DNA of 64,000 nucleotides, from IMG/VR virus record IMGVR_UViG_3300045988_101835; one strand, written 5' to 3'. The position numbers and the translations under genes were made by a program. Shown here one piece after another: positions 16,896-43,414 of the stretch (positions within the stretch are counted from its first letter, which is position 1; every line of letters begins with the position of its first letter). A model generated the notes under the pieces. It did not search any database and had not been told where the DNA came from. It saw only the letters and a list, made by a program, of their open reading frames with translations. This DNA comes from a virus.

Positions 16896-16924
16896 TTTTT
16901 TTTCTAACTTTCCTTCAATATTTA

Positions 16925-17430: not shown

Positions 17431-17637
17431 ATGATTGAGACAATGCGTGTTAAGGACTTTCTGAAGGATTCTCGCCGTCATGGGCGTTATGCTATCGGGA
17501 CTTCTCCGTCTAACTTGAAGACGGTTTCGGGGTACTCTGATAATACGTCGGGAGGACGCCGCTTCCTTCGTTTTTCGCATATGGAGGTTGTCGTTGATGA
17601 CTTCACGACGGTTGTCGTTGACTTTTCGCAGCGTTAG
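17431..17637 (+). CDS. Hypothetical protein
   Basis: ATG at 17431 within ORF-track ORF 17422..17637. Confidence 0.45.
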   Translation: MIETMRVKDFLKDSRRHGRYAIGTSPSNLKTVSGYSDNTSGGRRFLRFSHMEVVVDDFTTVVVDFSQR

Positions 17638-21090: not shown

Positions 21091-21096
21091 GGTATT

Positions 21097-30949: not shown

Positions 30950-31239
30950 GTGAGTTTGAGTGCAGCTTGAAGTGGCTTATTGCTGATCTGTGTATTTGTT
31001 CCCATTCTTTGTTGCGGGGTAAGTCCGTAACCCGGAGTTTTGGTTTTGCTGATTTCGGTGTTTATGGGACGATACGTTTTACACGGAGTGCTACGGATAA
31101 CTACTCATTGACTGGCGTATTCAGTGGCAATGGCTCGGATCAGTTTGGCGAGTTGGTCATTCCTTATTGCCCTTACGTGGGTTTTGACGAATACGCTCGC
31201 AATTTTGTTGATTTTATAAAAGAAAAAGTTTTAGTTTGA
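30946..31239 (+). CDS. Hypothetical protein (GTG start overlapping the upstream stop)
   Basis: GTGA overlap at 30946-30949. Confidence 0.45.
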   Translation: MSEFECSLKWLIADLCICSHSLLRGKSVTRSFGFADFGVYGTIRFTRSATDNYSLTGVFSGNGSDQFGELVIPYCPYVGFDEYARNFVDFIKEKVLV

Positions 31240-31242
31240 GTA

Positions 31243-31557
31243 ATGGGAAGAAGTGTTTCTCGTGAGAGTGTTGAGGTTCGTCCGGGTTTTTCCGTTGATA
31301 TGACGGGCCAGCAGCGAGCTTTTTGGTCTACGCTTACGTCGGTTCCGGTTGGGGATCAAGTGTCCACGGAGGAGCTTTCTACGAAGCTGGATATTGAGAT
31401 TCGCAATTTGCGTGTCTTGAAGAACAAGGTCGGGCGACTGGTATCACCTGCTTATATCATTAAGAGTAAGTGGGGTGGTTTTTACAGTTTGGTTCCGGTT
31501 TCGGATCAGGCTGCGGAGTCTACACCGACCGTTGCTTCGGAGTCGGTTTCGGAGTAG
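31243..31557 (+). CDS. OmpR/PhoB-type winged-helix DNA-binding protein
   Basis: MTGQQRAFWSTL...VSTEELS...IRNLRVLKNKVGRL...IIKSKWGGFYSL resembles the Trans_reg_C pattern. Confidence 0.5.
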   Translation: MGRSVSRESVEVRPGFSVDMTGQQRAFWSTLTSVPVGDQVSTEELSTKLDIEIRNLRVLKNKVGRLVSPAYIIKSKWGGFYSLVPVSDQAAESTPTVASESVSE

Positions 31558-31566
31558 TGGTGTTCT

Positions 31567-32172
31567 ATGAATCTTCCGGTGAGTCATATATGTCTACCTC
31601 CGGGGTTTCGTCACAAAAATTACCAGTGGTTAAAGTTGCTGGAGTTGTGGGGCGGTATTCGTGGTGGTGTTGAGGTTCGTGAGAACTTCATTACGGACGA
31701 TTTGGCTGTAGATGTTTTGGAGCATCTGCCGTGTGCATCGGGGGATCGTATTTCCTTTTGGTATACCCGAGACGTTGGGGGTCGTGGCAAAAATACTTCC
31801 GTTGACTACTTTGGTTTGGTAGGTTTATCCTTGTTGAACTTGTCGGACCGTCGTGTCATTATTACGGAGGGTGTTTCTGATTATTTGTCTGCTAAGTTGT
31901 GCTACCCGACCTTCAACGTTCTTGGGTTTACTTCTCTTGGTGGCAATTCGAAGGCTACCCGTATTGTCTTGTCGTTGTTCGACGAGCTTTATTATTTTGC
32001 GGATAATGACATGGATAAGCATGGGTTTAATACGGGTTTGCGTGCCGGGGGCAACGTTTTGAATTTTTATATGCGTCATGGTAAGCGTGTCCATGTTTTG
32101 ACACCGAATTTGCCTTATAAGGATACGACGCAGCAGTTTCTGGCAGACTTGGCGTTCGCGTTTAACAGTTAG
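31567..32172 (+). CDS. Toprim-domain protein (primase-like)
   Basis: VIITEGVSDYLS...LGFTSLGG...YYFADNDMDKHG...KD. Confidence 0.65.
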   Translation: MNLPVSHICLPPGFRHKNYQWLKLLELWGGIRGGVEVRENFITDDLAVDVLEHLPCASGDRISFWYTRDVGGRGKNTSVDYFGLVGLSLLNLSDRRVIITEGVSDYLSAKLCYPTFNVLGFTSLGGNSKATRIVLSLFDELYYFADNDMDKHGFNTGLRAGGNVLNFYMRHGKRVHVLTPNLPYKDTTQQFLADLAFAFNS

Positions 32173-32181
32173 GTTTCTTTT

Positions 32182-32958
32182 ATGGTTTACATGGGGTCTA
32201 AGGCGGCTTTGGTTTCGGAGCTTGGTCCTATTCTAAAGTCGCATTTGGTTTCGGATTCTCAGTGGTACATTGAGTGTTTTATGGGTGGTGGCAATATGAT
32301 TTCTATGATCGACCATCCTTTGCGCTGGGGTAATGACTACAATGATCTTCTGCCGGAGATGTTTTCGTATCTTCAGTCGAAGGTCTATTTTGATGAGCGC
32401 ACTTGTGAGTGGTGCTTTCCGGAGGATACTTTCCCCACGGAGGTATCTAAGGAGGAGTATATCTACATGCGTGGTCATAAGGAGGAGTTTCCGAAGTGGC
32501 TTGTGGCCTACGTTGGTTTCTGCTGTTCGTTTAAGGCTACGTTTTTTCAGGGTTATGCGGGTAAGATGTATCAGGATCGGAATCGCGCTTCTATTTTCAA
32601 GCAGTTCACGGCGCAGTATCATAACGGCATGCGGGGTGTTAAGCTGACTGCCGGGGATTATCGTGATATGGATATTCCGCGTGGGTCATTGTTGTACCTT
32701 GATCCGCCTTATGCCAATACGAGTGCTTATAAGTCTAGTGCAGGTTCTATTAATAAGTTCGATCATCCTGCGTTCTATCGTTGGTGTGTTTCACAGGTTA
32801 AGGACAATGAGTGTTCTGTGTTTTTGTCGGAGTATACGAAGCCGGATTACGGTACATGGGATACGGTTTGGCAGCAGATCAAGTTTAATAACATGTACTC
32901 GGGTGGTGGTCCTAAGCCGTTCAATGTAGAGAAGTTATTTCGCTGCATAGGTGAGTAA
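32182..32958 (+). CDS. dam: Dam-like DNA adenine methyltransferase (D12 class)
   Basis: MGSK, FMGGGN (motif I), ND.N, LLYLDPPY (motif IV), FLSEY. Confidence 0.8.
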   Translation: MVYMGSKAALVSELGPILKSHLVSDSQWYIECFMGGGNMISMIDHPLRWGNDYNDLLPEMFSYLQSKVYFDERTCEWCFPEDTFPTEVSKEEYIYMRGHKEEFPKWLVAYVGFCCSFKATFFQGYAGKMYQDRNRASIFKQFTAQYHNGMRGVKLTAGDYRDMDIPRGSLLYLDPPYANTSAYKSSAGSINKFDHPAFYRWCVSQVKDNECSVFLSEYTKPDYGTWDTVWQQIKFNNMYSGGGPKPFNVEKLFRCIGE

Positions 32959-32973
32959 GGTTTTTACCTTTTA

Positions 32974-33005
32974 TTTGGATTATTAAATTAACTTTTCTAT
33001 CTTTG
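32974..33005 (+). promoter_or_regulatory. Bacteroidota-type promoter (TTTG, 20 nt, TAtcTTTG), second copy of the promoter-leader cassette
   Basis: tttg at 32974-32977 and tatctttg at 32998-33005. Confidence 0.65.
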
Positions 33006-33050
33006 TGGTGTAGATATAGTTCTACAGGTAATTTAATATGGCTTTGAGTT

Positions 33051-33329
33051 ATGGGTACTACCTTCAAGGATTTGGCTTTGTTCTTTGTGTTTCTAGCTGA
33101 GGAAGGAGCTACGGCTCAGTTTTTCGAGAATTGGGTTCCCAACGATCCGTTTTGTCGTGCGTGTTCAGATATTGTAGGTTCGTTCACTTTGTGGGTTCAA
33201 AGATATGGCGTGGCTTGGGACTCTTATATTACTTCCTCTTTTCGTTGGGGGTGCTCCCTTGAAGGTCCTGCTTACTGGTCGGATTTAAACTTCAAATGGT
33301 TGAGTTATTATGGGACGGTTTGTAAGTAG
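33051..33329 (+). CDS. Hypothetical protein, paralog of ORF 2878..3177
   Basis: Shared F.FL.EEG...F......FRW...EG..YW.D...KW pattern. Confidence 0.55.
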   Translation: MGTTFKDLALFFVFLAEEGATAQFFENWVPNDPFCRACSDIVGSFTLWVQRYGVAWDSYITSSFRWGCSLEGPAYWSDLNFKWLSYYGTVCK

Positions 33330-33927
33330 CGACAGTGTGGTGTATACTCGCTTTTGCGAGATCATCAATGGGTTCACGGGTTATGCTATGACCCGTCAGG
33401 ACTTCGAGTCTATTCTGGAGCGATGTGGTAGTCCTTATGCGTGGAGTACGGTCCGGGCGTGGCTTAGGGGTTTGGAGCGCTTAGGCTTCGTTTATCCGTT
33501 GTATAACATCGACCAAGTGCGTTCGGGTGCTAAGCAGGTGTGGTTCTTGTATCATCCCTTGCTGCATCCTTTGCGTTCTACGGAGCTTAAGTACGCTAAG
33601 AGTCTTTCTCCTGTAGAGTCTATCCAGTTGAAGTTTTCTCCGGTTCTGTCTCGTTTAGGAGATACTCGTCCGTGGCATGCTGCTTTACATGCTATTAATT
33701 CTCGAGTTTTCCATGTAGACGTGAATCTTAAGTTCAAGATTGGTATGGGAGTTGTGAATCGGATTTTCGCTCCTCATGTTAATAGTTTGTTTGCGGCGCC
33801 TGTTGTATCTTCTATGTTTGTTATGAGCTTGATTGCTTCTGGGGTTTGTAAGAGGATTTACGAATTAAAGCTGCAGAAAGCCCACGCCTTTAGGCGTGGG
33901 ATGAATGCAGCCTATCTTTTCTTCTGA
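33310..33927 (+). CDS. Hypothetical (winged-helix-like) protein whose 3' end is replaced by IS605 left-end sequence
   Basis: The reading frame runs across the predicted IS boundary at 33861/33862. The last 22 codons are IS-derived. Confidence 0.6.
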   Translation: MGRFVSSDSVVYTRFCEIINGFTGYAMTRQDFESILERCGSPYAWSTVRAWLRGLERLGFVYPLYNIDQVRSGAKQVWFLYHPLLHPLRSTELKYAKSLSPVESIQLKFSPVLSRLGDTRPWHAALHAINSRVFHVDVNLKFKIGMGVVNRIFAPHVNSLFAAPVVSSMFVMSLIASGVCKRIYELKLQKAHAFRRGMNAAYLFF

Positions 33928-34310
33928 TCCTCGATATATCGACGTATTGTATCTTCAGAAATGTGTCCTATCGTCTCAACGTAATAGGATCGCGTCCAGA
34001 GGGTCGGCATGCGTGTCTGCAGCGACGGAAATTCAAGCCGGAGCGTATGTGATGTGTAACCCTTAAGCTGTGCCACAATCCGCGCAACCGGATCAATCGG
34101 GTTGGCCTTAATAAAAAGATGAACATGGTCGGGCATGACCTCCAGCGACTCGATAACCCATCCGAACTTGATAGCTTGCTCATGGAGCAAGACATTAAAA
34201 CGTTTTGCAATATCACCCGTTAAAACCTTTCGACGATACTTGGAGCACCAGATGATATGATAGGCTACATTATAGACGGAGCCTTTATTTATCTGCCAAC
34301 GGGTACGCAT
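33912..34310 (-). CDS. tnpA: IS200/IS605 Y1 (HUH) transposase TnpA
   Basis: MRTRWQINKGSVYNVAYHIIWCSKYRRKVL...MPDHVHLFI...GYTS...LWTRSYY carries the HUH and catalytic Tyr context. Internal ATG at 34310. Confidence 0.9.
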   Translation of the reverse strand: MRTRWQINKGSVYNVAYHIIWCSKYRRKVLTGDIAKRFNVLLHEQAIKFGWVIESLEVMPDHVHLFIKANPIDPVARIVAQLKGYTSHTLRLEFPSLQTRMPTLWTRSYYVETIGHISEDTIRRYIEDQKKR

Positions 34311-34318
34311 GGTTTTTA

Positions 34319-34350
34319 TTTGCAAAAATAGTATTCTATTCTTATATTTG
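34319..34350 (+). promoter_or_regulatory. Bacteroidota-type promoter inside the IS, driving tnpB
   Basis: tttg at 34319-34322 and tatatttg at 34343-34350, with 20-nt spacing. Confidence 0.6.
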
Positions 34351-34369
34351 TGGCATAAAGAGTACAATA

Positions 34370-35500
34370 ATGTTGACCTACAAGTACAAACTCTATAGGA
34401 CGCATCGGACCATATGGTTGGATCGGATGCTTCGTGAGTGTGCGTTTGTATGGAACCATGCGCTTGCACTTCAACGTAGATACTACCATTTGTACGGTAA
34501 GTACGTTTCGTCGGTAGATATGCAGAAGCATTTCGCCAAACGCATCAAGCGGCATCTATTGTACTCACATAATAGCGTTGAGGTATTACAGAGATTGGAC
34601 GCAGCTTACCAACGGTTCTTCAAGAAGCTTGCTAAGCGTCCGCCTAAGTTTCGCCGGGCTTCAGACTTTCAGTCATTCGTCTACAAACTCCACTATGGCT
34701 ATAAAATAGACGGCAATTGCTTTACAATTAACAGACTTAAGAAAACTTATAAATTTCACAAATCCCGTGACTTTGCGGGTGCAATAAAGACGGTTCGTGT
34801 TAAACGCGATCCATGCGGTGACTTTTGGTTATACATTACAACCGATGCCAAAGTAGAAGCCAGCAACACGACATATGATGGTGCGGTTGTAGGAATTGAC
34901 TTTGGCCTTAAGACATATCTGACGTTATCCGACGGGCGCAGCTATGCGAACCCGCAATTCTTCAAGCAGACGCTGCGCGACATCCGTAAGGCGCATCGTC
35001 GGCTGAGCCGTTCCGTCAAAGGATCCAATAACCACCGCCGTCGGTGGTTGGAGCTTGGTCGGATCTACCGTAGGATTAGCAATCATCGCGACGATTATCA
35101 GTGGCGCTTGGCACATGAGTTATGTCGTCGTTATTCTACGATCTGCTTGGAGACACTAAGCCTTGACGGGATGCGCCGGTTGTGGGGTCGCAAGGTTTCG
35201 GATCTCAGCCACGCATCGTTCGTATCGCACTTGGAATTCGTAGCCACTAAGTATGGCACGAGCGTTGTGCATGTCGACAAGTGGTTTGCTAGCAGCAAGA
35301 CGTGTAGTTGTTGCGGATACGTTAATAAGGAGCTTCGTTTGGTTGCTCGATCGTGGGTTTGTCCACAATGTGGTACGCACCATGATCGTGATCTAAACGC
35401 GGCGTTAAACATTAAGCGTTCGGGCATGGGCGCGTTGATTAGTGGTTGTAAGTCCGCTTCGGCGGCCGCCATGCTTGAGTCAAGAATCCAGCGGCTTTAG
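34370..35500 (+). CDS. tnpB: TnpB RNA-guided endonuclease, copy B
   Basis: 376 aa. VVGIDFGLK, ICLETLS and HDRDLNAALNI motifs. CSCCG...CPQCG zinc ribbon. Confidence 0.9.
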   Translation: MLTYKYKLYRTHRTIWLDRMLRECAFVWNHALALQRRYYHLYGKYVSSVDMQKHFAKRIKRHLLYSHNSVEVLQRLDAAYQRFFKKLAKRPPKFRRASDFQSFVYKLHYGYKIDGNCFTINRLKKTYKFHKSRDFAGAIKTVRVKRDPCGDFWLYITTDAKVEASNTTYDGAVVGIDFGLKTYLTLSDGRSYANPQFFKQTLRDIRKAHRRLSRSVKGSNNHRRRWLELGRIYRRISNHRDDYQWRLAHELCRRYSTICLETLSLDGMRRLWGRKVSDLSHASFVSHLEFVATKYGTSVVHVDKWFASSKTCSCCGYVNKELRLVARSWVCPQCGTHHDRDLNAALNIKRSGMGALISGCKSASAAAMLESRIQRL

Positions 35501-35537
35501 CCGCGGGAGTATGTCAAATATGGAGGTTATGATCTCG
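35350..35537 (+). ncRNA. Predicted omegaRNA of TnpB copy B: scaffold to 35517, guide about 35518-35537. Boundaries are approximate.
   Basis: By analogy with characterised TnpB systems. Hairpin gcggc-ttta-gccgc at 35491-35504. Confidence 0.35.
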
Positions 35538-35603
35538 CGGGTTGGGTCCTTAAGATTAAGTCTACTCTCTCGGATATGGGTGTTTCTTTGAACAGTGATT
35601 TTT

Positions 35604-37880
35604 ATGGCTGGGGGAAATAGTACTACTACTTTAGCGAATCTTTATCGTCCCAAGACTTTTGCGGACGTCGTGGGCCAGCCTTTGGCGGTTACCACCTTGA
35701 AGCGTATTGCCCATGCGGACGGTATCGCCGCACGTGCTATTTTTATGAAGGGTGCGTTTGGCTCCGGTAAAACTACGACTGCCCGTATTTTTGCTAGAGC
35801 TTTGAACTGTGATACTTTCAAGCAGACTGACGATGTTTGTAATACGTGTGATGGTTGTCTGGAGGCTTCGTCGGTTAATTCCTCTACGTATTGGGAGCTT
35901 GATGGTACAGTCATAGGTAACGTCGAGGGTATTCGTGCTCTGAAGGAGCGCTTGTCTATTGTTCCTAATGGTCGTAGGGTTGTCTGTCTTGACGAAGTTC
36001 AGAGTTGCTTGTACTATAATACACCTGTAGTGTGTGTATCAGATGACGGCAGTATTTACCGTCAGCCGATTCACAAGATTGTTAATAATCGGCTACCTGT
36101 GAAGGTTCTTTCGGTTAACGCTGCGGGAGGTCTTTGTGTTTCTCGTGTTACGGGTTGGTTTAAGAATCCTCTTAAGCAGTTATGTCGTATTAAGGTACGG
36201 GGCGCTTCTGGTCTTAAAAAGATTGGTTCTGGCTCGCGGGTAATAGTTTGTACTTTAGATCATCGCTTTTTACGTTCGGATGGTGAGTATGTTTGTGCTT
36301 CGGACTTACATTTAGGAGATTCGTTGTCATCTTTTTTTAGTGTGTGCGGGGATCGTTTTATTCAGGCAGAGCTTAATAAGCGTACTGAGTATATCATTTC
36401 CGATTCAACAAAGTCGTTCCTTTATGGGAGTCTTTTGGGTGATATGTACTTTTCTTCTGGTGATGTAAATTACAATTATCGTTTGAAGTGCACTCATGGA
36501 CATGTTCAGCTTTTTTGGTTACGTGAGAAGCATCGTATACTTGGGTGCTTAGCTGGGGCCTTGCGGGAGTTTGTTAGCTCGCCGGGTGCTTATGTTGATT
36601 CAGTTTCTGTTATGAATTCGTTGAGTCATCCTTTATTTACCGAGATGGCGAGAGTTTGTTGTGGTTCTGATGGGAAACGTCACGTAAATATGGAGTGGTT
36701 GTCTCATGTCGACGAGATAGGGTTAGCTGCTTGGTTTATGGATGATGGTTCTTATCATTTTCGTCGTTTGCGTAATAAACAGGTAACCTGCTTGCATGGG
36801 GTTCAACTGTCTACTCATAGCTTTACTTATGAGGAAAATGAACTTTTAGTTAAGTGGTTATCTGATCGTTGGGGTCTAGATTTTTATATTAGGGTTGATA
36901 AGAGATGTGGTAAGCCTTACTTAGTTTCTAGTCATGTTGAGTCTGCTAGGAAGTTTTTAGCACTTGTTGCTCCTTTCCTTTGCAAGGAGTTTCAATATAA
37001 GTTAGGTAACACTTTTGAGGCTGGTGGTGGTGTTAGGTCTATTCCAGCAATTTCCAAGCGAGTCCCGGAATACTTCGGCGGTTTTTTATTCGATGGGGTT
37101 GTCGAGAGTATTGAGATTTTTGACCCTCCGAAGTACTCATCTGTTAAATCTGGCTGTTTGTCTAGCGAGAATAAATATCCTTATGATAATGGTTGGGTAT
37201 ACGACTTGGAGGTAGCAGATACTCATTCTTATATTGCAGGCCGGGGATTTGTGGTTCATAACTGCAGCAGGAGTGCGAGTGACGCTTTATTGAAGGTTGT
37301 CGAGGAGGGAGTTCCTAATACGATCTTTCTCTTTTGTGGCACGGAGGATATCCAGCCAACTTTAAAGTCTCGTTGTGTAAATATTGACATTTCGGTTATT
37401 CCTTTGTCTTTGATTGCGGATCGCGTTCGGTTTATAGCTAACGACCGGGGTATCTCTATTACGGATGATCAGCTTCGAATCTTGGCTATGAAGTCTCAGG
37501 GTCACATGCGGGATGCCCTTCAGTTGCTTCAGTTTTACGAGCTTGCGGGCGAACGTGCTCTTGACAGCTCCTACTTCTTGTTCCGGGAGTTTGTGCGCTC
37601 TTGCTTCGCAAAGGGCGCCGATCCTTCGTCCGTTTTGCCAAAGCTGTTGGTTTATTCCACTGCAGATATAAAGATGTCTGTAGGGCTTCTTATTCGCAAT
37701 ATTTTCGGCAGTGTTCAGGATGACTCTTTGGAGTCTAAGTTCCAGCGTGCGGGTCTGGGTCAGACGTTGTTTAGCTTTTTCTTTTCTCCGTTAGCTCAGC
37801 AGGCTTTGGGTTCTGAGATTGGGACAGAGATTTTGCTTAGGTCTTTAATGGAGCGAACTGCGGGTTCTCGAAAGGTGTAG
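35604..37880 (+). CDS. Clamp-loader AAA+ ATPase (DnaX/RFC/gp44-like) interrupted by an intein
   Basis: LYRPKTFADVVGQ, Walker A GAFGSGKTT, Walker B CLDEVQS, then after the intein SASDALLKVVEEGVP and LKSRC. Confidence 0.85.
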   Translation: MAGGNSTTTLANLYRPKTFADVVGQPLAVTTLKRIAHADGIAARAIFMKGAFGSGKTTTARIFARALNCDTFKQTDDVCNTCDGCLEASSVNSSTYWELDGTVIGNVEGIRALKERLSIVPNGRRVVCLDEVQSCLYYNTPVVCVSDDGSIYRQPIHKIVNNRLPVKVLSVNAAGGLCVSRVTGWFKNPLKQLCRIKVRGASGLKKIGSGSRVIVCTLDHRFLRSDGEYVCASDLHLGDSLSSFFSVCGDRFIQAELNKRTEYIISDSTKSFLYGSLLGDMYFSSGDVNYNYRLKCTHGHVQLFWLREKHRILGCLAGALREFVSSPGAYVDSVSVMNSLSHPLFTEMARVCCGSDGKRHVNMEWLSHVDEIGLAAWFMDDGSYHFRRLRNKQVTCLHGVQLSTHSFTYEENELLVKWLSDRWGLDFYIRVDKRCGKPYLVSSHVESARKFLALVAPFLCKEFQYKLGNTFEAGGGVRSIPAISKRVPEYFGGFLFDGVVESIEIFDPPKYSSVKSGCLSSENKYPYDNGWVYDLEVADTHSYIAGRGFVVHNCSRSASDALLKVVEEGVPNTIFLFCGTEDIQPTLKSRCVNIDISVIPLSLIADRVRFIANDRGISITDDQLRILAMKSQGHMRDALQLLQFYELAGERALDSSYFLFREFVRSCFAKGADPSSVLPKLLVYSTADIKMSVGLLIRNIFGSVQDDSLESKFQRAGLGQTLFSFFFSPLAQQALGSEIGTEILLRSLMERTAGSRKV
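36006..37262 (+). mobile_element. Intein (419 aa) with a LAGLIDADG homing endonuclease, inserted after Walker B of the clamp loader
   Basis: Starts at Cys (CLYYNT), block B TLDH, LYGSLLGDMYF and LAAWFMDDGSY, ends VVHN followed by +1 Cys. Confidence 0.85.
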
Positions 37881-37889
37881 GTTTTTGTT

Positions 37890-38468
37890 ATGGTTGATCG
37901 CGTGGATATTGTAGATTTAGATTCTGCTGCTGAGGTTAGTGTTTCGTCGGCTCGTGTTGTTATAGATAAGCGGCTGTTGCTTTCTTTTTACATGCATCCT
38001 ACGGATGAGACTACGGAGGCGGAGCTTGCTGAGATTAATAAGGTCATCAGCATTGTTTTGAATACTCATTTTGGTAAGTATTACCGCATGTTTGATGACT
38101 TGCGTTCGCAGGCTCTTGCTACTATTATAGAGCGTCATGATCGCTTTGACTCGAAGATGGCAGCTTATCCTTATCTGTATACCATGATTCGCAATGAAGC
38201 GGGTAATTTGATTCGTCGTTTGCTTCGTGAGGATGACCTTGAGGTTCTGCCGCCGTCACGCGGTCGTGTTGCAGAGATTATTCCGAGTGTTTTAGACGAG
38301 CTTCTGCCGTTCTTGTCGGGTGACTCTCCGTTTACACGTATAGAGATTCCGCATGGTCTTGTAGGTCCGTTTCTTGTCTTTTGCCAATGTGGCTTAAACA
38401 AGAAACAGTCGGAGTCGGAGGCTATGGAGTCGGTTATCGGCAAATTGGTTGACATTTTTATTTTTTAA
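37890..38468 (+). CDS. Candidate phage sigma factor (sigma-70 region 2 / T4 gp55-like)
   Basis: 192 aa. HDRFDSKMAAYPYLYTMIRNEAGNLIRRLLRE resembles gp55 [30 protein letters not shown]. Hydrophobic tail LVDIFIF. Confidence 0.45.
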   Translation: MVDRVDIVDLDSAAEVSVSSARVVIDKRLLLSFYMHPTDETTEAELAEINKVISIVLNTHFGKYYRMFDDLRSQALATIIERHDRFDSKMAAYPYLYTMIRNEAGNLIRRLLREDDLEVLPPSRGRVAEIIPSVLDELLPFLSGDSPFTRIEIPHGLVGPFLVFCQCGLNKKQSESEAMESVIGKLVDIFIF

Positions 38469-38480
38469 TTTTATTATCGC

Positions 38481-39386
38481 ATGGACGAAAATACTATTTT
38501 AGGAGAGGATTCTCCCGTCACGAGTTTGGAGTCTTTGGTTCGTCTCGGCACGGCCACGGAGACGGATTTGGGTATGCAGATGCGTGCCATCATGGTAGGT
38601 GTTTCTACCGCTGCTTGTAACATTGTGGAGCGTCTTCACAATCAGTCTATGGCCTGCGCTAATATTATGCAGCGTCTTTCTGACAAGCATTTGGAGAAGT
38701 TGTCGGAGGAGATCGAGACGATGGATCGCACTGAGCTGGATGTTGAGTATAAGAATCTCATGGCTCGTCAGATCGAGGTTGCCAAGCTGGAGATCAAGAT
38801 TGCTCAGGGTAAGGCTATGTTCCCTGAGGATTCTTTCTCGGAGGAGGATCGTAAGATTCTGCGTATGCTTTCGGCGCTTCGTTCGAAGGAGGATCGCCAG
38901 CGCTTCGTTCGCATTCTGTCGGAGGAGTTCGGTGACGAGAATAGCTTCGATAGCGAGCCTGTGGTTCCTTCGGAGCCTATTTACGATGCAGTCGATCCTG
39001 CTGATTCGGAGTTGACGCGCGGTGGTCGTGTTCGTCGTGCGTCACGTAAGGTTTCGGCTGGCCGCGAGATGCCTCAGGATGAGTTCGCTGAGATGGAAAC
39101 TACGGTTACGGTTGCTCCGGAGAATCCCACGAAATCGGTGGATATTGACGTTGTGGTTCCGGATAGCAGTGTCGGCGTTCCGCAGCACGCTATCGAGCCT
39201 ACGCCGACGTCGGGTGTCGAGGTTGGTCCTGAGTCGCTTGCGGATGCTCCGTCGGATGTCAAGCTTCCGGAGCCGCCGGAGATTCCGGGATTCGAGCTTC
39301 CGCATGATGAGTCTCCGGCTCCTGCGCCTGCTGCTCAGCCTGCTCAGGCGATTCCTGACTTTGAGGACGAGTTCGCAGGCATGTAG
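38481..39386 (+). CDS. Hypothetical protein with a coiled-coil N-domain, P/E/A-rich linker and tip IPDFEDEFAGM
   Basis: ORF-track ORF. The tail was read directly from the sequence. Confidence 0.6.
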   Translation: MDENTILGEDSPVTSLESLVRLGTATETDLGMQMRAIMVGVSTAACNIVERLHNQSMACANIMQRLSDKHLEKLSEEIETMDRTELDVEYKNLMARQIEVAKLEIKIAQGKAMFPEDSFSEEDRKILRMLSALRSKEDRQRFVRILSEEFGDENSFDSEPVVPSEPIYDAVDPADSELTRGGRVRRASRKVSAGREMPQDEFAEMETTVTVAPENPTKSVDIDVVVPDSSVGVPQHAIEPTPTSGVEVGPESLADAPSDVKLPEPPEIPGFELPHDESPAPAPAAQPAQAIPDFEDEFAGM

Positions 39387-40108: not shown

Positions 40109-43100
40109 ATGGGGTCAGTTAAGGATACGATACAGCGTCGGGGTGGTGTTGCTTCTGCCGTCAGCGACTTGCTTCTTACGGAGCGCAAGCTAGTAGGATT
40201 TCGGGAGTTTATTCTTTCTCCAGACTATATGGCTTTGGAGGGGGTCTATCCTTTCTGGTTGAAGGAGGCAGATAACATGCAGGATGACTTGTCTTCACTG
40301 GTGTTGACAGGCTCATTAGGAGGCGGCAAGTGCGTAGTTTACAGCGACTTGGTATCGACGGATCATGGGTACGTTCCTATTGGGTCTTTGGTTCCAGATG
40401 CGGGTTATGGCTTCACACCGTTCGAGGTTGGTGTCGAGCAGCCAGATGGTAGCTTTGCGCAGACGAGTCATTTCTACAAGGAGAAGGACGCGGAGGTGCT
40501 TCACTTGCGTTGTGCTAGTGGTCGGAGTTATAGTGGTACTGCGGATCATCCTCGGTTAGCTTATCGTGTCGGCTCGGATCGCGTTGAGTTGGTTCGCTGT
40601 GGCGACTTGCGTGTCGGTGATTATATCGCCCGCCGTTGGACAGGTAGTATCGAGTTGCATCCGGACGCAGATGAGGCTAAGCTTTATTGCTTGTATGGTG
40701 TCTGGCTTGGGGATGGTCATTTTGATAATGCTGTTCCTCACAATCCAGTTATAGGTTATTTGTCATGTGATACTTTAGCTGATTGGTGTCGTGAGGTTGA
40801 AGGCTATTTGACGAGTAATGCTCATATTTGTAAAGAGAGTGGCTGTCGGTTATATTCGTTGCCGTTGTATCGCTCTAGGCTTCGTGATTTTATAGGTGGT
40901 TACTGTGTCGCTAATACGAAGTATATTCACAGTGCTGCTTTCGGAAGTCGTGAGCGTGCATTTTACACGTTGTATGGTTTGCTTATTACAGATGGGTATG
41001 TAAATAAAGGTCATGGGACGCTTGGGTTTGCTACAGTTTCTCCGCGTTTGGCGGATGGTGTATGTAGCATTCTCGACTATCTTGGTTTGCAGTATAGCAT
41101 CCGGAAGCGTACAGATCGCAAGTATTTTTATAAGAAGGTTGGTGAGTGGCGTCCGGCGCAGGACAGTTATCGGATAACTATATCAGTTGAGTCATCGCAT
41201 GCTTTATACGATGCTATGCTAGCTTACGTTCCTCTCCTTGAGATGGATGCTCCGCATCAGCGTCGTCTTATTGAAGGGCTTCGTGCAGATTTTGAGGCTC
41301 GTGCTAGTAAGAGTTCTCGAATAAACTGTAAGACTACTTTCAAGTTAGAAGGTGCTGAGGTTGGCATAGTGGCGCAGCTGCGTTCGGTTCGTCAGTTGAC
41401 GGATGTGTCGACGCGAAATAAGTTTGATTCTTATGCTAGGACTACCCATTCTATGTTGGGGAATAAAGCTGCATCCAATCAGGCTTTCGAACGTTTGCGA
41501 GCGTGGTTGGAGGATCGAGGTCAGACGTTGCCGGACAACTTGGCTTCTTTTTGTGATGTTCGTTTTGACCGAATTGAGAGTATTGATACGACGGTTGAGG
41601 ATGTTTATGATGTTACAGTTCCTTCGACGCATTTGTTCATGTCGGGGAATGTGGTGAATCATAATACGTCTTACCTGAATATGGTTACTTGCTATAAGTT
41701 GTATTGCTGGTTTAGTCAGGGCGACTTGTATAACTATTTTCAAATCCTTCGTGGTACGCCTATTTACTTTTTGTACTTCTCTGTATCGATGAAGGCTGCG
41801 GAGCGTTCTGGTTTCAAGCAGTTGCGACAGATGATTGATAATGCCCCGTGGTTTAAAAATAATTTTCCGCGCCGTAAGGACATTCAGTCTTCCATTCAGT
41901 TTAATAATAATTTCTCAATTGAGTTTGCTTCGGGTGAGAGTCATGCTATTGGTTTGAATGTCGTTGGTGCTATTATTGACGAGGCTAATTTCAGGAATGG
42001 TGTCGGTCAGGGTACTGTTTCAGAGTATTCGGAGGTCCAGCGTTTGGCTCAGCAGTTGGAGGACCGTATGCATTCTCGTTTTACCCGTGAGGGCGGTAAG
42101 TTGATTTCTTTCATGGGGTACATTTCCTCGGCTTCTTATCAGTCTTCGTTTATCGAGGAGAAGGTTGCCGAGTTGGCATCTGATCCGCAGGGTCGTGTTA
42201 TTAATGCCGTTCAGTATAAGATTTGTCCTCAGAATTACTCGCCTAAGAAGTTCGAGGTGTTCTGTGGCTACCAGCAGATTTCCCCGTGTATTGTCCAGAG
42301 CAAGGAGCATAAGGCTACGCTTGTGAAGTCTATGAGTCTTCCGAAGTCTAAGGCGGAGGGTTATTTCGAGCGTGTTCCGGAGGATCTGAAGTCGCAGTTC
42401 AAGAAGAACATCTATCTGGCCATCCAGAATCATTGCGGACGTTCTACAGCGGCTAAGGGTAGCTTCATCACGAACTATGATGTCGTTCGCAAGGCGTATA
42501 GTGATGCGTTGCTTCGTGCGTGTCCTTTGGTTCAGAGTAGTATTGTTGTCTCGGATCAGGACGATACTCCTATCCGCTCTGTTCTGGATATTTCACGTTT
42601 ACAGTATACGGATCGTCCTCATGCCCTGTGCTTGGACTTGTCTTTGACGGGCGACCACGGTTCTTTGTGCTGTGTTCGGTTTGATGGCTATGCGGCAGAC
42701 GGCAGGGCTTTGCATAATGAGGTTTTCAACTTAGAGCTTGTTCCTCCGGCGTTTCCGGGGATGTTGAAGGTTTCGAAGGTCGAGGATTTCATTTTGTGGC
42801 TTGCAGAGCATTTGAATATTGTGGTTTTTAGTACTGACCAGTTCCAGTCCACGCAGCTTCGTCAGAATGTGTGCGAGGCTTTGATGCTTCCGGATATCCG
42901 CCTTTCTTTGGATAGTTCCGACATTCCTCATTTGTTGTGGCTTTCGATGTTAGTTGACGAGCGTCTTGGTCTTCTTTACTTGGAGCGTCAGGATCGAGAG
43001 ATTCGGGAGGCGGTCCATGATGTTGTCAAGCATAAGGTTGTCAAGCGTGACGGGTCTTCAGACGACCAGTTCCAGACTTTGGTCGGTGCCTTCTTCTTGT

Positions 43101-43414
43101 CGGAGACGATCTGTACGCAGGAGGGGGATATATCGTCCTTGCTTGATGCGCGCCTTAACTTGGTTGGTGCAGGTAATATTAACCGTATGCTTAAGTCGCT
43201 TGGCTATGGTGGCGTTGCTTTGGATGGCCGGGGTCAGGTTGCCCGTGCTGCTGTTTCGGACGTCGAGGCTCCGCGTCCGAGTGTCCGTTCGCTTCTGGAG
43301 GGTCGTGCTGCTTCGGGTCCGTCGTTTACGAGTTCTGATGTTATTGCTTCGATGACGCCGCGTCGTAGACGTGGTGGTGTCTGGGATTTGATTAATGGTT
43401 TGGGCGACAAGTGA
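40109..43414 (+). CDS. terL: Terminase large subunit interrupted by an intein
   Basis: The P-loop GSLGGGK|...|TSY is reconstituted after intein removal. Walker B-like GAIIDEANF. Sits upstream of the portal-size gene. Confidence 0.85.
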   Translation: MGSVKDTIQRRGGVASAVSDLLLTERKLVGFREFILSPDYMALEGVYPFWLKEADNMQDDLSSLVLTGSLGGGKCVVYSDLVSTDHGYVPIGSLVPDAGYGFTPFEVGVEQPDGSFAQTSHFYKEKDAEVLHLRCASGRSYSGTADHPRLAYRVGSDRVELVRCGDLRVGDYIARRWTGSIELHPDADEAKLYCLYGVWLGDGHFDNAVPHNPVIGYLSCDTLADWCREVEGYLTSNAHICKESGCRLYSLPLYRSRLRDFIGGYCVANTKYIHSAAFGSRERAFYTLYGLLITDGYVNKGHGTLGFATVSPRLADGVCSILDYLGLQYSIRKRTDRKYFYKKVGEWRPAQDSYRITISVESSHALYDAMLAYVPLLEMDAPHQRRLIEGLRADFEARASKSSRINCKTTFKLEGAEVGIVAQLRSVRQLTDVSTRNKFDSYARTTHSMLGNKAASNQAFERLRAWLEDRGQTLPDNLASFCDVRFDRIESIDTTVEDVYDVTVPSTHLFMSGNVVNHNTSYLNMVTCYKLYCWFSQGDLYNYFQILRGTPIYFLYFSVSMKAAERSGFKQLRQMIDNAPWFKNNFPRRKDIQSSIQFNNNFSIEFASGESHAIGLNVVGAIIDEANFRNGVGQGTVSEYSEVQRLAQQLEDRMHSRFTREGGKLISFMGYISSASYQSSFIEEKVAELASDPQGRVINAVQYKICPQNYSPKKFEVFCGYQQISPCIVQSKEHKATLVKSMSLPKSKAEGYFERVPEDLKSQFKKNIYLAIQNHCGRSTAAKGSFITNYDVVRKAYSDALLRACPLVQSSIVVSDQDDTPIRSVLDISRLQYTDRPHALCLDLSLTGDHGSLCCVRFDGYAADGRALHNEVFNLELVPPAFPGMLKVSKVEDFILWLAEHLNIVVFSTDQFQSTQLRQNVCEALMLPDIRLSLDSSDIPHLLWLSMLVDERLGLLYLERQDREIREAVHDVVKHKVVKRDGSSDDQFQTLVGAFFLSETICTQEGDISSLLDARLNLVGAGNINRMLKSLGYGGVALDGRGQVARAAVSDVEAPRPSVRSLLEGRAASGPSFTSSDVIASMTPRRRRGGVWDLINGLGDK
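40331..41665 (+). mobile_element. Intein (445 aa) with a LAGLIDADG homing endonuclease, inserted in the TerL Walker A loop
   Basis: Starts at Cys (CVVYSD), block B TADH, LYGVWLGDGHF and LYGLLITDGYV, ends VNHN followed by +1 Thr. Confidence 0.85.

Follow-up and report, generated by a model that had tools for sequence, protein, structure and literature searches.

The 64,000 nucleotides (nt) of viral DNA analyzed here, called the window throughout, belong to IMG/VR record IMGVR_UViG_3300045988_101835 and carry a complete 1656-bp insertion sequence (IS) with the genes tnpA and tnpB at 33862–35517, its top strand on the plus strand. Judged by its sequence, this IS appears to be an autonomous IS608-like member of the IS200/IS605 family that resides in an uncultured gut phage of ~130 kb. 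We consider it probable that TnpB, together with an omegaRNA encoded by the element, directs cutting at a site specified by a guide, and that repair of the cut retains or spreads the element. This reading is carried by the anatomy of the element, the intact catalytic motifs of TnpB and the purifying selection on its gene, a conserved RNA structure, the TTAC flank, and natural IS-free alleles in which the predicted target is present. The original prediction, made from the letters of the window, had proposed that the guide of an apparently intact TnpB matches the flank of the phage itself and that the nuclease might drive homing during co-infection.

Ends, copies and proteins of the element

Copies of the element were gathered by a TnpB protein scan, which yielded 14 loci in IMG/VR and 9 in GTDB species genomes. 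Two copies are present in the window, namely the complete element (copy B) and a tnpB-only derivative of the same IS family (copy A, 235–1383 on the plus strand; tnpB 235–1344, right end finishing at 1383, guide from 1384). The similarity of copies A and B stops exactly after GTCAA, which fixes the right end of the element at 35517. Four other full copies (L003, L004, L005, and L018) were aligned by BLAST over IS positions 1–1656 and have unrelated flanks, and eight tnpB-only or partial derivatives finish at the same right-end base as the full element. Homology to the IS-free allele restarts at 35518. The predicted guide therefore starts at 35518, and its original placement at 35518–35537, immediately 3′ of the element, agrees with the right end seen in the five full copies. 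The family is mobile, the full element being found at no fewer than four distinct insertion sites and the derivatives at several more.

The tetranucleotide TTAC at 33858–33861 (plus strand) abuts the left end, as it does in all five full copies; the IS-free allele has two TTACs, and its counterpart there is the first. It would be the target and left cleavage site of TnpA and also the target-adjacent motif (TAM) of TnpB, a role that had been assigned to TTAC originally and is supported by its presence 5′ of the left end in every full copy. At the 5′ sides of the tnpB-only derivatives, TTTAC, TTAT, or CTAC was found instead of TTAC. As read from the sequence, the left end (33862–33903, plus strand) begins with a 19-nt linker ending in AAAG (33877–33880), which is followed by the hairpin CCCACGCC-TTTA-GGCGTGGG (33881–33900). 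The right end consists of GAAT (35484–35487), a hairpin (35488–35507), and a 10-nt tail ending in TCAA (35514–35517). The GAAT located 5′ of the right hairpin is presumably equivalent to the right guide of IS608. Neither terminal inverted repeats nor a target-site duplication was found at the ends by sequence reading and comparison with the IS-free allele, the flanks being TTAC on the left and ATAT on the right.

These features resemble those of IS608 (ISHp608) from Helicobacter pylori, which likewise combines a Y1 TnpA with TnpB, inserts 3′ of TTAC, and has no terminal inverted repeats and no target duplication. In IS608 both genes run in the same direction, whereas tnpA is divergent from tnpB in the present element, as in IS605. 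The two elements also differ in that the window TnpB is ~35% identical to the TnpBs in Helicobacter phage records, and in that the present element resides in a gut phage, its family having tnpB-only derivatives as well as derivatives without an open reading frame (ORF) within phage genomes. The layout of the ends follows IS608 closely (PMC3201880): the left cleavage site lies 19 nt from the hairpin with AAAG, this guide tetranucleotide pairs with TTAC by the IS608 rule, and the right TCAA lies 10 nt past the hairpin. An assembly chimera was rejected as the origin of the insertion, because the IS ends are exact at both junctions (left TTAC, right TCAA) and because in an independent contig, L019, a remnant belonging to this IS subtype lies between the same genes.

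The tnpA gene (33912–34313, minus strand) encodes a Y1/HUH transposase of 133 residues that matches Pfam Y1_Tnp over its full length (E=6e-38, positions 1–121 of 121), and the translation holds the HVH motif and the C-terminal RRYIEDQ tyrosine motif. The tnpB gene (34370–35500, plus strand) is an uninterrupted ORF for a predicted RNA-guided nuclease homologue of 376 residues, which matches Pfam OrfB_IS605 and Cas12f1-like_TNB (the latter at E=3e-22). Residues 12–355 match the ISDra2 TnpB structures 8bf8/8ex9/8exa and 8h1j at E=8e-43. The RuvC D-E-D residues are kept in the ISDra2 alignment (GIDFG/GVDVG, CLETL/GTEHL, and HDRDLNAA/HDRDENAA), as are both CxxC pairs of the zinc ribbon (CSCC and CPQC). 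We take the catalytic positions to be those of D191, E278, and D361 in ISDra2 TnpB. The statement in the original prediction that copy B retains all three RuvC motifs and the zinc ribbon was confirmed by the alignment to 8bf8, and the catalytic residues, for which an alignment had been named as a check, proved to be the canonical D-E-D. Pairwise ratios of nonsynonymous to synonymous divergence (dN/dS) were 0.05–0.15 at dS of ~0.4–2.8 among nine related tnpB copies (first 1020 nt), and TnpB is therefore under purifying selection in the phage-borne family.

Predicted omegaRNA, guide and natural targets

A predicted omegaRNA scaffold overlaps the 3′ end of tnpB and the right end of the element (~35394–35517, plus strand), where it had originally been expected. 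Three independent computational lines, covariation, synonymous constraint, and a mini-element, point to a functional RNA unit in this region. RNAalifold analysis of an alignment of 11 copies, including the distant L011 (54% protein identity), gave a 3′ domain with 30 pairs, in which 97.9% of the cells were paired and 14 pairs had compensatory changes. In the shuffle control, 0 of 500 reached this level of covariation, and slid registers gave just 1–4 such pairs. Divergence at third codon positions among the copies is 0.2–0.55 along tnpB and drops to 0.13–0.16 in the last ~110 nt. The mini-element came from megablast of 31000–39000 against 50,697 phage records, which returned a single match of 128 bp that was later identified as part of a 166-nt ORF-less element in a human faecal phage scaffold (MT839121.1, L036, 3368–3533). 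It follows TTAC directly and consists of the same 42-nt left end as in the window (33862–33903) and 124 nt equal to window 35394–35517. Since this deletion derivative keeps exactly 35394–35517, it delimits the scaffold unit, and it would in effect be a non-autonomous derivative that provides the guide RNA only. No match to omegaRNA or IS605-orfB families was found in Rfam, either at the gathering threshold for the whole window or at E≤10 for 33800–35700, and no terminator-like site was found between tnpB and the flank.

The predicted guide-encoding flank is the first 16–20 nt past the right end (35518–35537, plus strand; atatggaggttatgatctcg), with its start set by the right-end boundary of the copies. 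By analogy with the ISDra2 and Gst TnpB systems (PMC10055086), this flank would be transcribed as the guide, and TTAC would be the TAM of the nuclease, as suggested by the left-end flank and by the coupling of the TAM between TnpA and TnpB in those systems. The match of the guide to its own flank is true by construction, following from the definition of the guide in IS605 elements, and is no statistical coincidence. IS-free alleles of the locus are present in four public contigs, L001 and L002 from IMG/VR, retrieved via an upstream phage protein, and L034 and L035 from metagenomes, retrieved via exact-pattern scans. Their flanks are 99.5–99.8% (L034), 98.8–99.6% (L002 and L035), and about 93–99% (L001) identical to those of the window. 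The IS-free alleles read TTAC followed by ATATGGAGGTTATGATCT, which matches the guide at 18 of 18 contiguous positions from the TAM-proximal end and at 19 of 20 positions overall. In a wider reading the allele is cctgTTAC followed by ATATGGAGGTTATGATCTtG, and all four alleles have gaggatTTAC, then tgtactgatcagtattttgcaccacatgctcctgTTAC, and then ATATGGAGGTTATGATCTtGCaGG. The natural target sequence of the empty allele is TTAC plus ATATGGAGGTTATGATCTTG.

Within the window, the 16-nt guide has two off-target sites at up to 3 mismatches (17579 and 45186), both with exactly 3; the site at 17579 is not preceded by TTAC (the flank of 45186 was not read). The sole other 18-mer matches in IMG/VR come from a single unrelated phage group, where AGCA precedes them. 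It had been claimed that the only matching target is an IS-free allele of this phage locus, and the four natural IS-free alleles with TTAC, together with the lack of any other exact match in the window, uphold this claim. The insertion site of copy B (locus B) thus shows presence/absence polymorphism with an intact recognition site in the empty allele. The preconditions for homing, a polymorphic locus and a TAM with a target in the empty allele, are therefore present.

The following mechanism is proposed. TnpA would move the top (plus) strand as single-stranded DNA, with left cleavage 3′ of TTAC and right cleavage 3′ of TCAA. With transcription of tnpB continuing across the right end, the final ~124 nt of the element would be processed and fold as the omegaRNA scaffold, and the next ~16–20 nt of phage DNA would become the guide. 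The TnpB-omegaRNA complex would cut any copy of the locus with ATATGGAGGTTATGAT immediately 3′ of TTAC. Its targets would be of two types. One is the product of scarless excision in sister genomes within the replicating pool, which would be matched perfectly (20 of 20); the other is the IS-free allele that a sibling phage brings into a co-infection, with 18 contiguous matches. Recombinational repair from the IS-bearing (IS+) genome would then reinstate or spread the element. Cutting of its own excision product within the pool of replicating phage genomes is the more conservative role, which needs no co-infection.

The homing mechanism itself is not new and follows the published TnpB model, in which the TAM is common to TnpA and TnpB, the donor joint is cut by TnpB-omegaRNA, and recombination restores the element (PMC10055086, Meers et al.). 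The present system resembles the TnpBs of ISDra2 and of ISGst from G. stearothermophilus (Karvelis 2021; Meers 2023, PMC10055086) in its protein (E=8e-43 to 8bf8, with an aligned catalytic triad) and, by prediction, in an omegaRNA that spans the 3′ end of tnpB and the right end, a guide taken from the flank, a TAM identical to the TnpA target, and the donor joint or empty site as the target. It differs from ISDra2 in the TAM, which is TTGAT in ISDra2 versus the TTAC proposed here, and from both in that the replicon is a phage, so that the place of the sister chromosome would be taken by the replicating phage pool or a co-infecting phage.

Alleles of the insertion locus and the host phage

The IS+ allele is not simply the IS-free allele plus the IS. 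Comparison of window 33858–33861 and 35518 with L002 6549–6590 revealed that the IS+ allele is without 38 nt between the two TTACs, so that the first TTAC adjoins the left end and the right end joins the sequence after the second TTAC. Whatever produced the deletion, a TTAC also precedes the new guide in the empty allele, so that the coupling of TAM and guide is kept. The same pattern was observed at the insertion site of copy A (locus A), where the right end is followed by gtttac and tgttttg in L008–L010 versus directly by tgttttg in the window and L012, a loss of 6 nt (gtttac) ending in TTAC (window 1383/1384 versus L008 4149–4156). No empty allele of locus A was found, all four IMG/VR contigs with this locus being occupied. 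The deletions adjacent to the right end that stop exactly after the next TTAC at two loci suggest that TnpA may catalyze an event in which the cleaved right end is linked to the DNA 3′ of the following TTAC.

The right flank of the window has 11 mismatches in 2746 nt to L034, the closest IS-free relative, and 6 of them lie within 49 nt of the right end, with the 38-nt deletion on the other side; divergence from L034 elsewhere is ~0.2–0.5%. At the six clustered positions (35536, 35539, 35542, and 35564–35566), all four IS-free alleles have the other state in common. The first three substitutions are synonymous in the severed frame of the disrupted gene, and the other three fall in one codon (V to T). 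Relaxed selection was rejected as the cause of this cluster, because six changes in 49 nt contrast with a background of ~0.2% and because the first three are synonymous. From its sequence, the cluster may be a short conversion tract from a more divergent, unseen lineage rather than a product of decay. In IMG/VR, neither a donor with the window-type right flank (ATATGGAGGTTATGATCTCGC) nor another IS+ allele was found, and a metagenome scan returned two further alleles without the IS, a single chance match of unrelated origin, and no donor lineage.

In total, locus B is represented by one IS+ allele (the window), the four IS-free alleles, and one decayed remnant. The remnant is in L019 (2996–3520; CANQWS010000007.1), a contig of a metagenome-assembled genome (MAG) binned as ‘Muribaculaceae’; the contig proved to be this phage, with flanks 96% identical. 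The remnant keeps IS positions 1158–1656, which are 96% identical to copy B, and has lost the region from window 33149 through IS position 1157, a deletion located between short gatcc microhomologies. Past the right end of the remnant, the next 24 nt differ from the window. The lineage with the remnant is ~4% diverged, while relatives at 0.2–0.5% divergence are empty. This distribution of alleles is compatible with transfer, independent insertion, or loss.

Close relatives of the element were found in viral contigs of IMG/VR, several of which share backbone with the phage. A single scan of 185,579 species-representative genomes, biased to close relatives, detected such relatives only in this ‘Muribaculaceae’ MAG: one of its contigs is the phage (L019), and the second (L017/L018) has no backbone match to the window. 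Given the bias of the scan, a bacterial reservoir of the IS family may still exist. Related copies also occur in more distant phage contigs of 67–135 kb. TnpB homologues are encoded in 427 of the 50,697 phage records, and the nearest, in Parabacteroides phage PF672P2 and csAssE-Sib, are ~54–55% identical.

The window is phage DNA. Phage genes lie on both sides of the IS, and the proteins encoded include a large terminase (phrog_17415), a major head protein (phrog_138), and the product of a clamp-loader-like gene that contains an intein. Its nearest full-length relative is L034, a metagenome contig of 132,585 bp, and the phage probably has a host among the Bacteroidales. The insertion truncates a phage gene (33310–33861, plus strand; the ORF of the window continues into the IS to 33927) and removes 46 residues from a protein of 230 residues in IS-free phages, for which no Pfam or PHROG match was found. 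The severed 3′ tail of this gene (35519–35620, plus strand) has a frame that is still open and contains the six substitutions in its first 49 nt. The severed tail (35498–35620) is also in frame with tnpB, and read-through of TAG would add 39 residues to TnpB, which is probably a coincidence.

Two genes contain LAGLIDADG inteins, the clamp-loader-like gene (35595–37880, intein ~36009–37252) and the large terminase gene (40109–43414, intein ~40393–41667). The clamp-loader intein is missing in L001 and L019, both of which bear an insert of ~1.1 kb at ~35770 that is related to the terminase intein. This polymorphism sits a few hundred bases from the IS. Since inteins are polymorphic in the phage population, co-infection with gene conversion evidently occurs.

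The window begins within a third, different TnpB element, IS-X (1–209; C-terminus HDRDFNAACNIKEFG; right end gtagttcac followed by atttgcaaag), which is nested in copy A, between the left end of copy A and its tnpB start. The uninterrupted site in L008 and L012 (L008 2890–3000) reads aaatTTAT followed by atttgcaaag. The target used by IS-X thus appears to be of the TTAT type, and the guide predicted for it would be directed at copies of another transposon that lack IS-X. The top strands of all three TnpB elements (235–1383, 33862–35517, and 1–209) are on the plus strand, the G/T-rich gene-sense strand; the plus strand has a strong G/T skew that is weaker inside the IS. IS200/IS605 elements prefer the lagging-strand template, and the shared orientation agrees with this preference if replication is co-directional with transcription. 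Six intergenic copies of the motif (T/C)GTGCAATTATATATCC(C/T)ATAAAT were found at 21096, 43427, 47449, 49722, 57682, and 61709, and a separate 64-nt repeat pair at 16921 and 32970; these are probably promoter or regulatory motifs of the phage.

Alternative explanations and homing in phages

The data fit homing between co-infecting phages, self-retention in the genome pool, and passive insertion alike, and several observations weigh against cutting and spread. Only one of the five intact locus B alleles is IS+, with one lineage holding the remnant, and there is no sign of a sweep. Thus, of the homing originally proposed, the preconditions and the IS-free targets were found, but no drive was seen. 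Two sister tnpB copies elsewhere (L006 and L008) have premature stops. The compensatory changes in the RNA model come mostly from one divergent sequence, L011, although a stem that changes from CGC/GCG to CAC/GUG and the right-end hairpin vary compensatorily among close copies too. Part of the right-end hairpin doubles as a DNA-binding site of TnpA, and its conservation therefore need not reflect a function as RNA. In addition, the TnpB of IS608, an element with identical end chemistry, was inactive in a plasmid-interference assay (PMC10055086).

The rarity of the IS+ allele, the pseudogenes in the family, and the inactivity of IS608 TnpB in that assay would also be in keeping with a passive passenger, that is, a recent and mildly deleterious insertion that persists only transiently by drift or hitch-hiking while TnpB and its omegaRNA are inactive, or irrelevant in the short lytic cycle. 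The loss of 46 residues from a conserved phage protein and the decay at the locus in L019 point in the same direction. Such a passenger is at odds with the strong purifying selection on tnpB across the phage-borne copies, with the conservation of the RNA scaffold and its retention in the mini-element, and with the multi-copy state of the IS family in a clade of related phage contigs, and we regard it as unlikely. If TnpB-omegaRNA is active in co-infection, it might also serve as a weapon between phages, cutting IS-free competitors and lowering their yield with little copying of the IS. The target and TAM are indeed present in co-circulating siblings that are up to 99.5–99.8% identical (L034), and homing endonucleases that exclude competitors are known in phages, as a review recounts (PMC13565253). 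However, repair from the IS+ genome should be easy given ~99% identical flanks and the recombination evident from mosaic patterns of single-nucleotide polymorphisms, so that killing without conversion is not expected to dominate; we consider the weapon improbable. It is far harder to credit a nuclease-dead, TldR-like TnpB that represses the downstream clamp-loader operon, to which the position of the guide just upstream of the clamp-loader gene (ORF start 35595) might point. The RuvC D-E-D and zinc ribbon are intact, and tnpA, both ends, and mobile relatives at many sites are retained. Moreover, the guide-matching DNA in the IS+ genome is preceded by TCAA, not TTAC, and self-binding is therefore not expected. 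The dead-nuclease regulator was rejected on its intact catalytic residues. Guide-directed cutting followed by repair that retains or spreads the element is the reading we prefer.

Parallels to such spread are available. PMC13565253 cites an experiment with a population of plasmids in which the spread of IS605 was driven by TnpB. As in the present proposal, the element-free allele is cut and repaired from the element-bearing replicon, and TnpA is not needed. In that account the drive is shown for plasmids only, whereas the phage locus offers the preconditions, a polymorphic locus and a TAM with a target in the empty allele. The same 2026 review (PMC13565253) treats as a theoretical case ‘transposon non-restorative homing’ whose targets are co-infected phages or plasmids. 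The proposed behavior also resembles that of the homing endonucleases of T-even phages (seg, mob, and I-TevI), which spread between co-infecting phages by cleaving the element-free allele and co-convert flanking markers, and this phage population is itself polymorphic for inteins that contain LAGLIDADG endonucleases. Unlike the protein-encoded recognition of these enzymes, recognition by TnpB would be RNA-guided and re-set at each insertion. In a bolder form, which we offer as a tentative and doubtful extension, a phage-adapted IS608-like lineage of full, tnpB-only, and 166-nt mini-elements would spread by RNA-guided non-restorative homing among co-infecting gut phages, as a programmable counterpart of seg and mob. 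The 38-nt loss and the six-substitution tract would then be a conversion scar, and the deletions to the next TTAC would be TnpA events that re-program the guide and by their nature leave the empty allele with a valid TAM.

TnpB homing has been shown for chromosomes and plasmids, and no demonstration in phages was found in the searched literature. Many phage genomes replicate and recombine together in one cell, and classical homing endonucleases are known to influence inheritance in phages. The locus described here is a natural test case, with an autonomous-looking element, a defined guide and TAM, IS-free siblings, and neighboring inteins that show homing. Its practical value is limited by the uncultured state of the phage, but the element, the RNA, and the target are small enough for a heterologous host.

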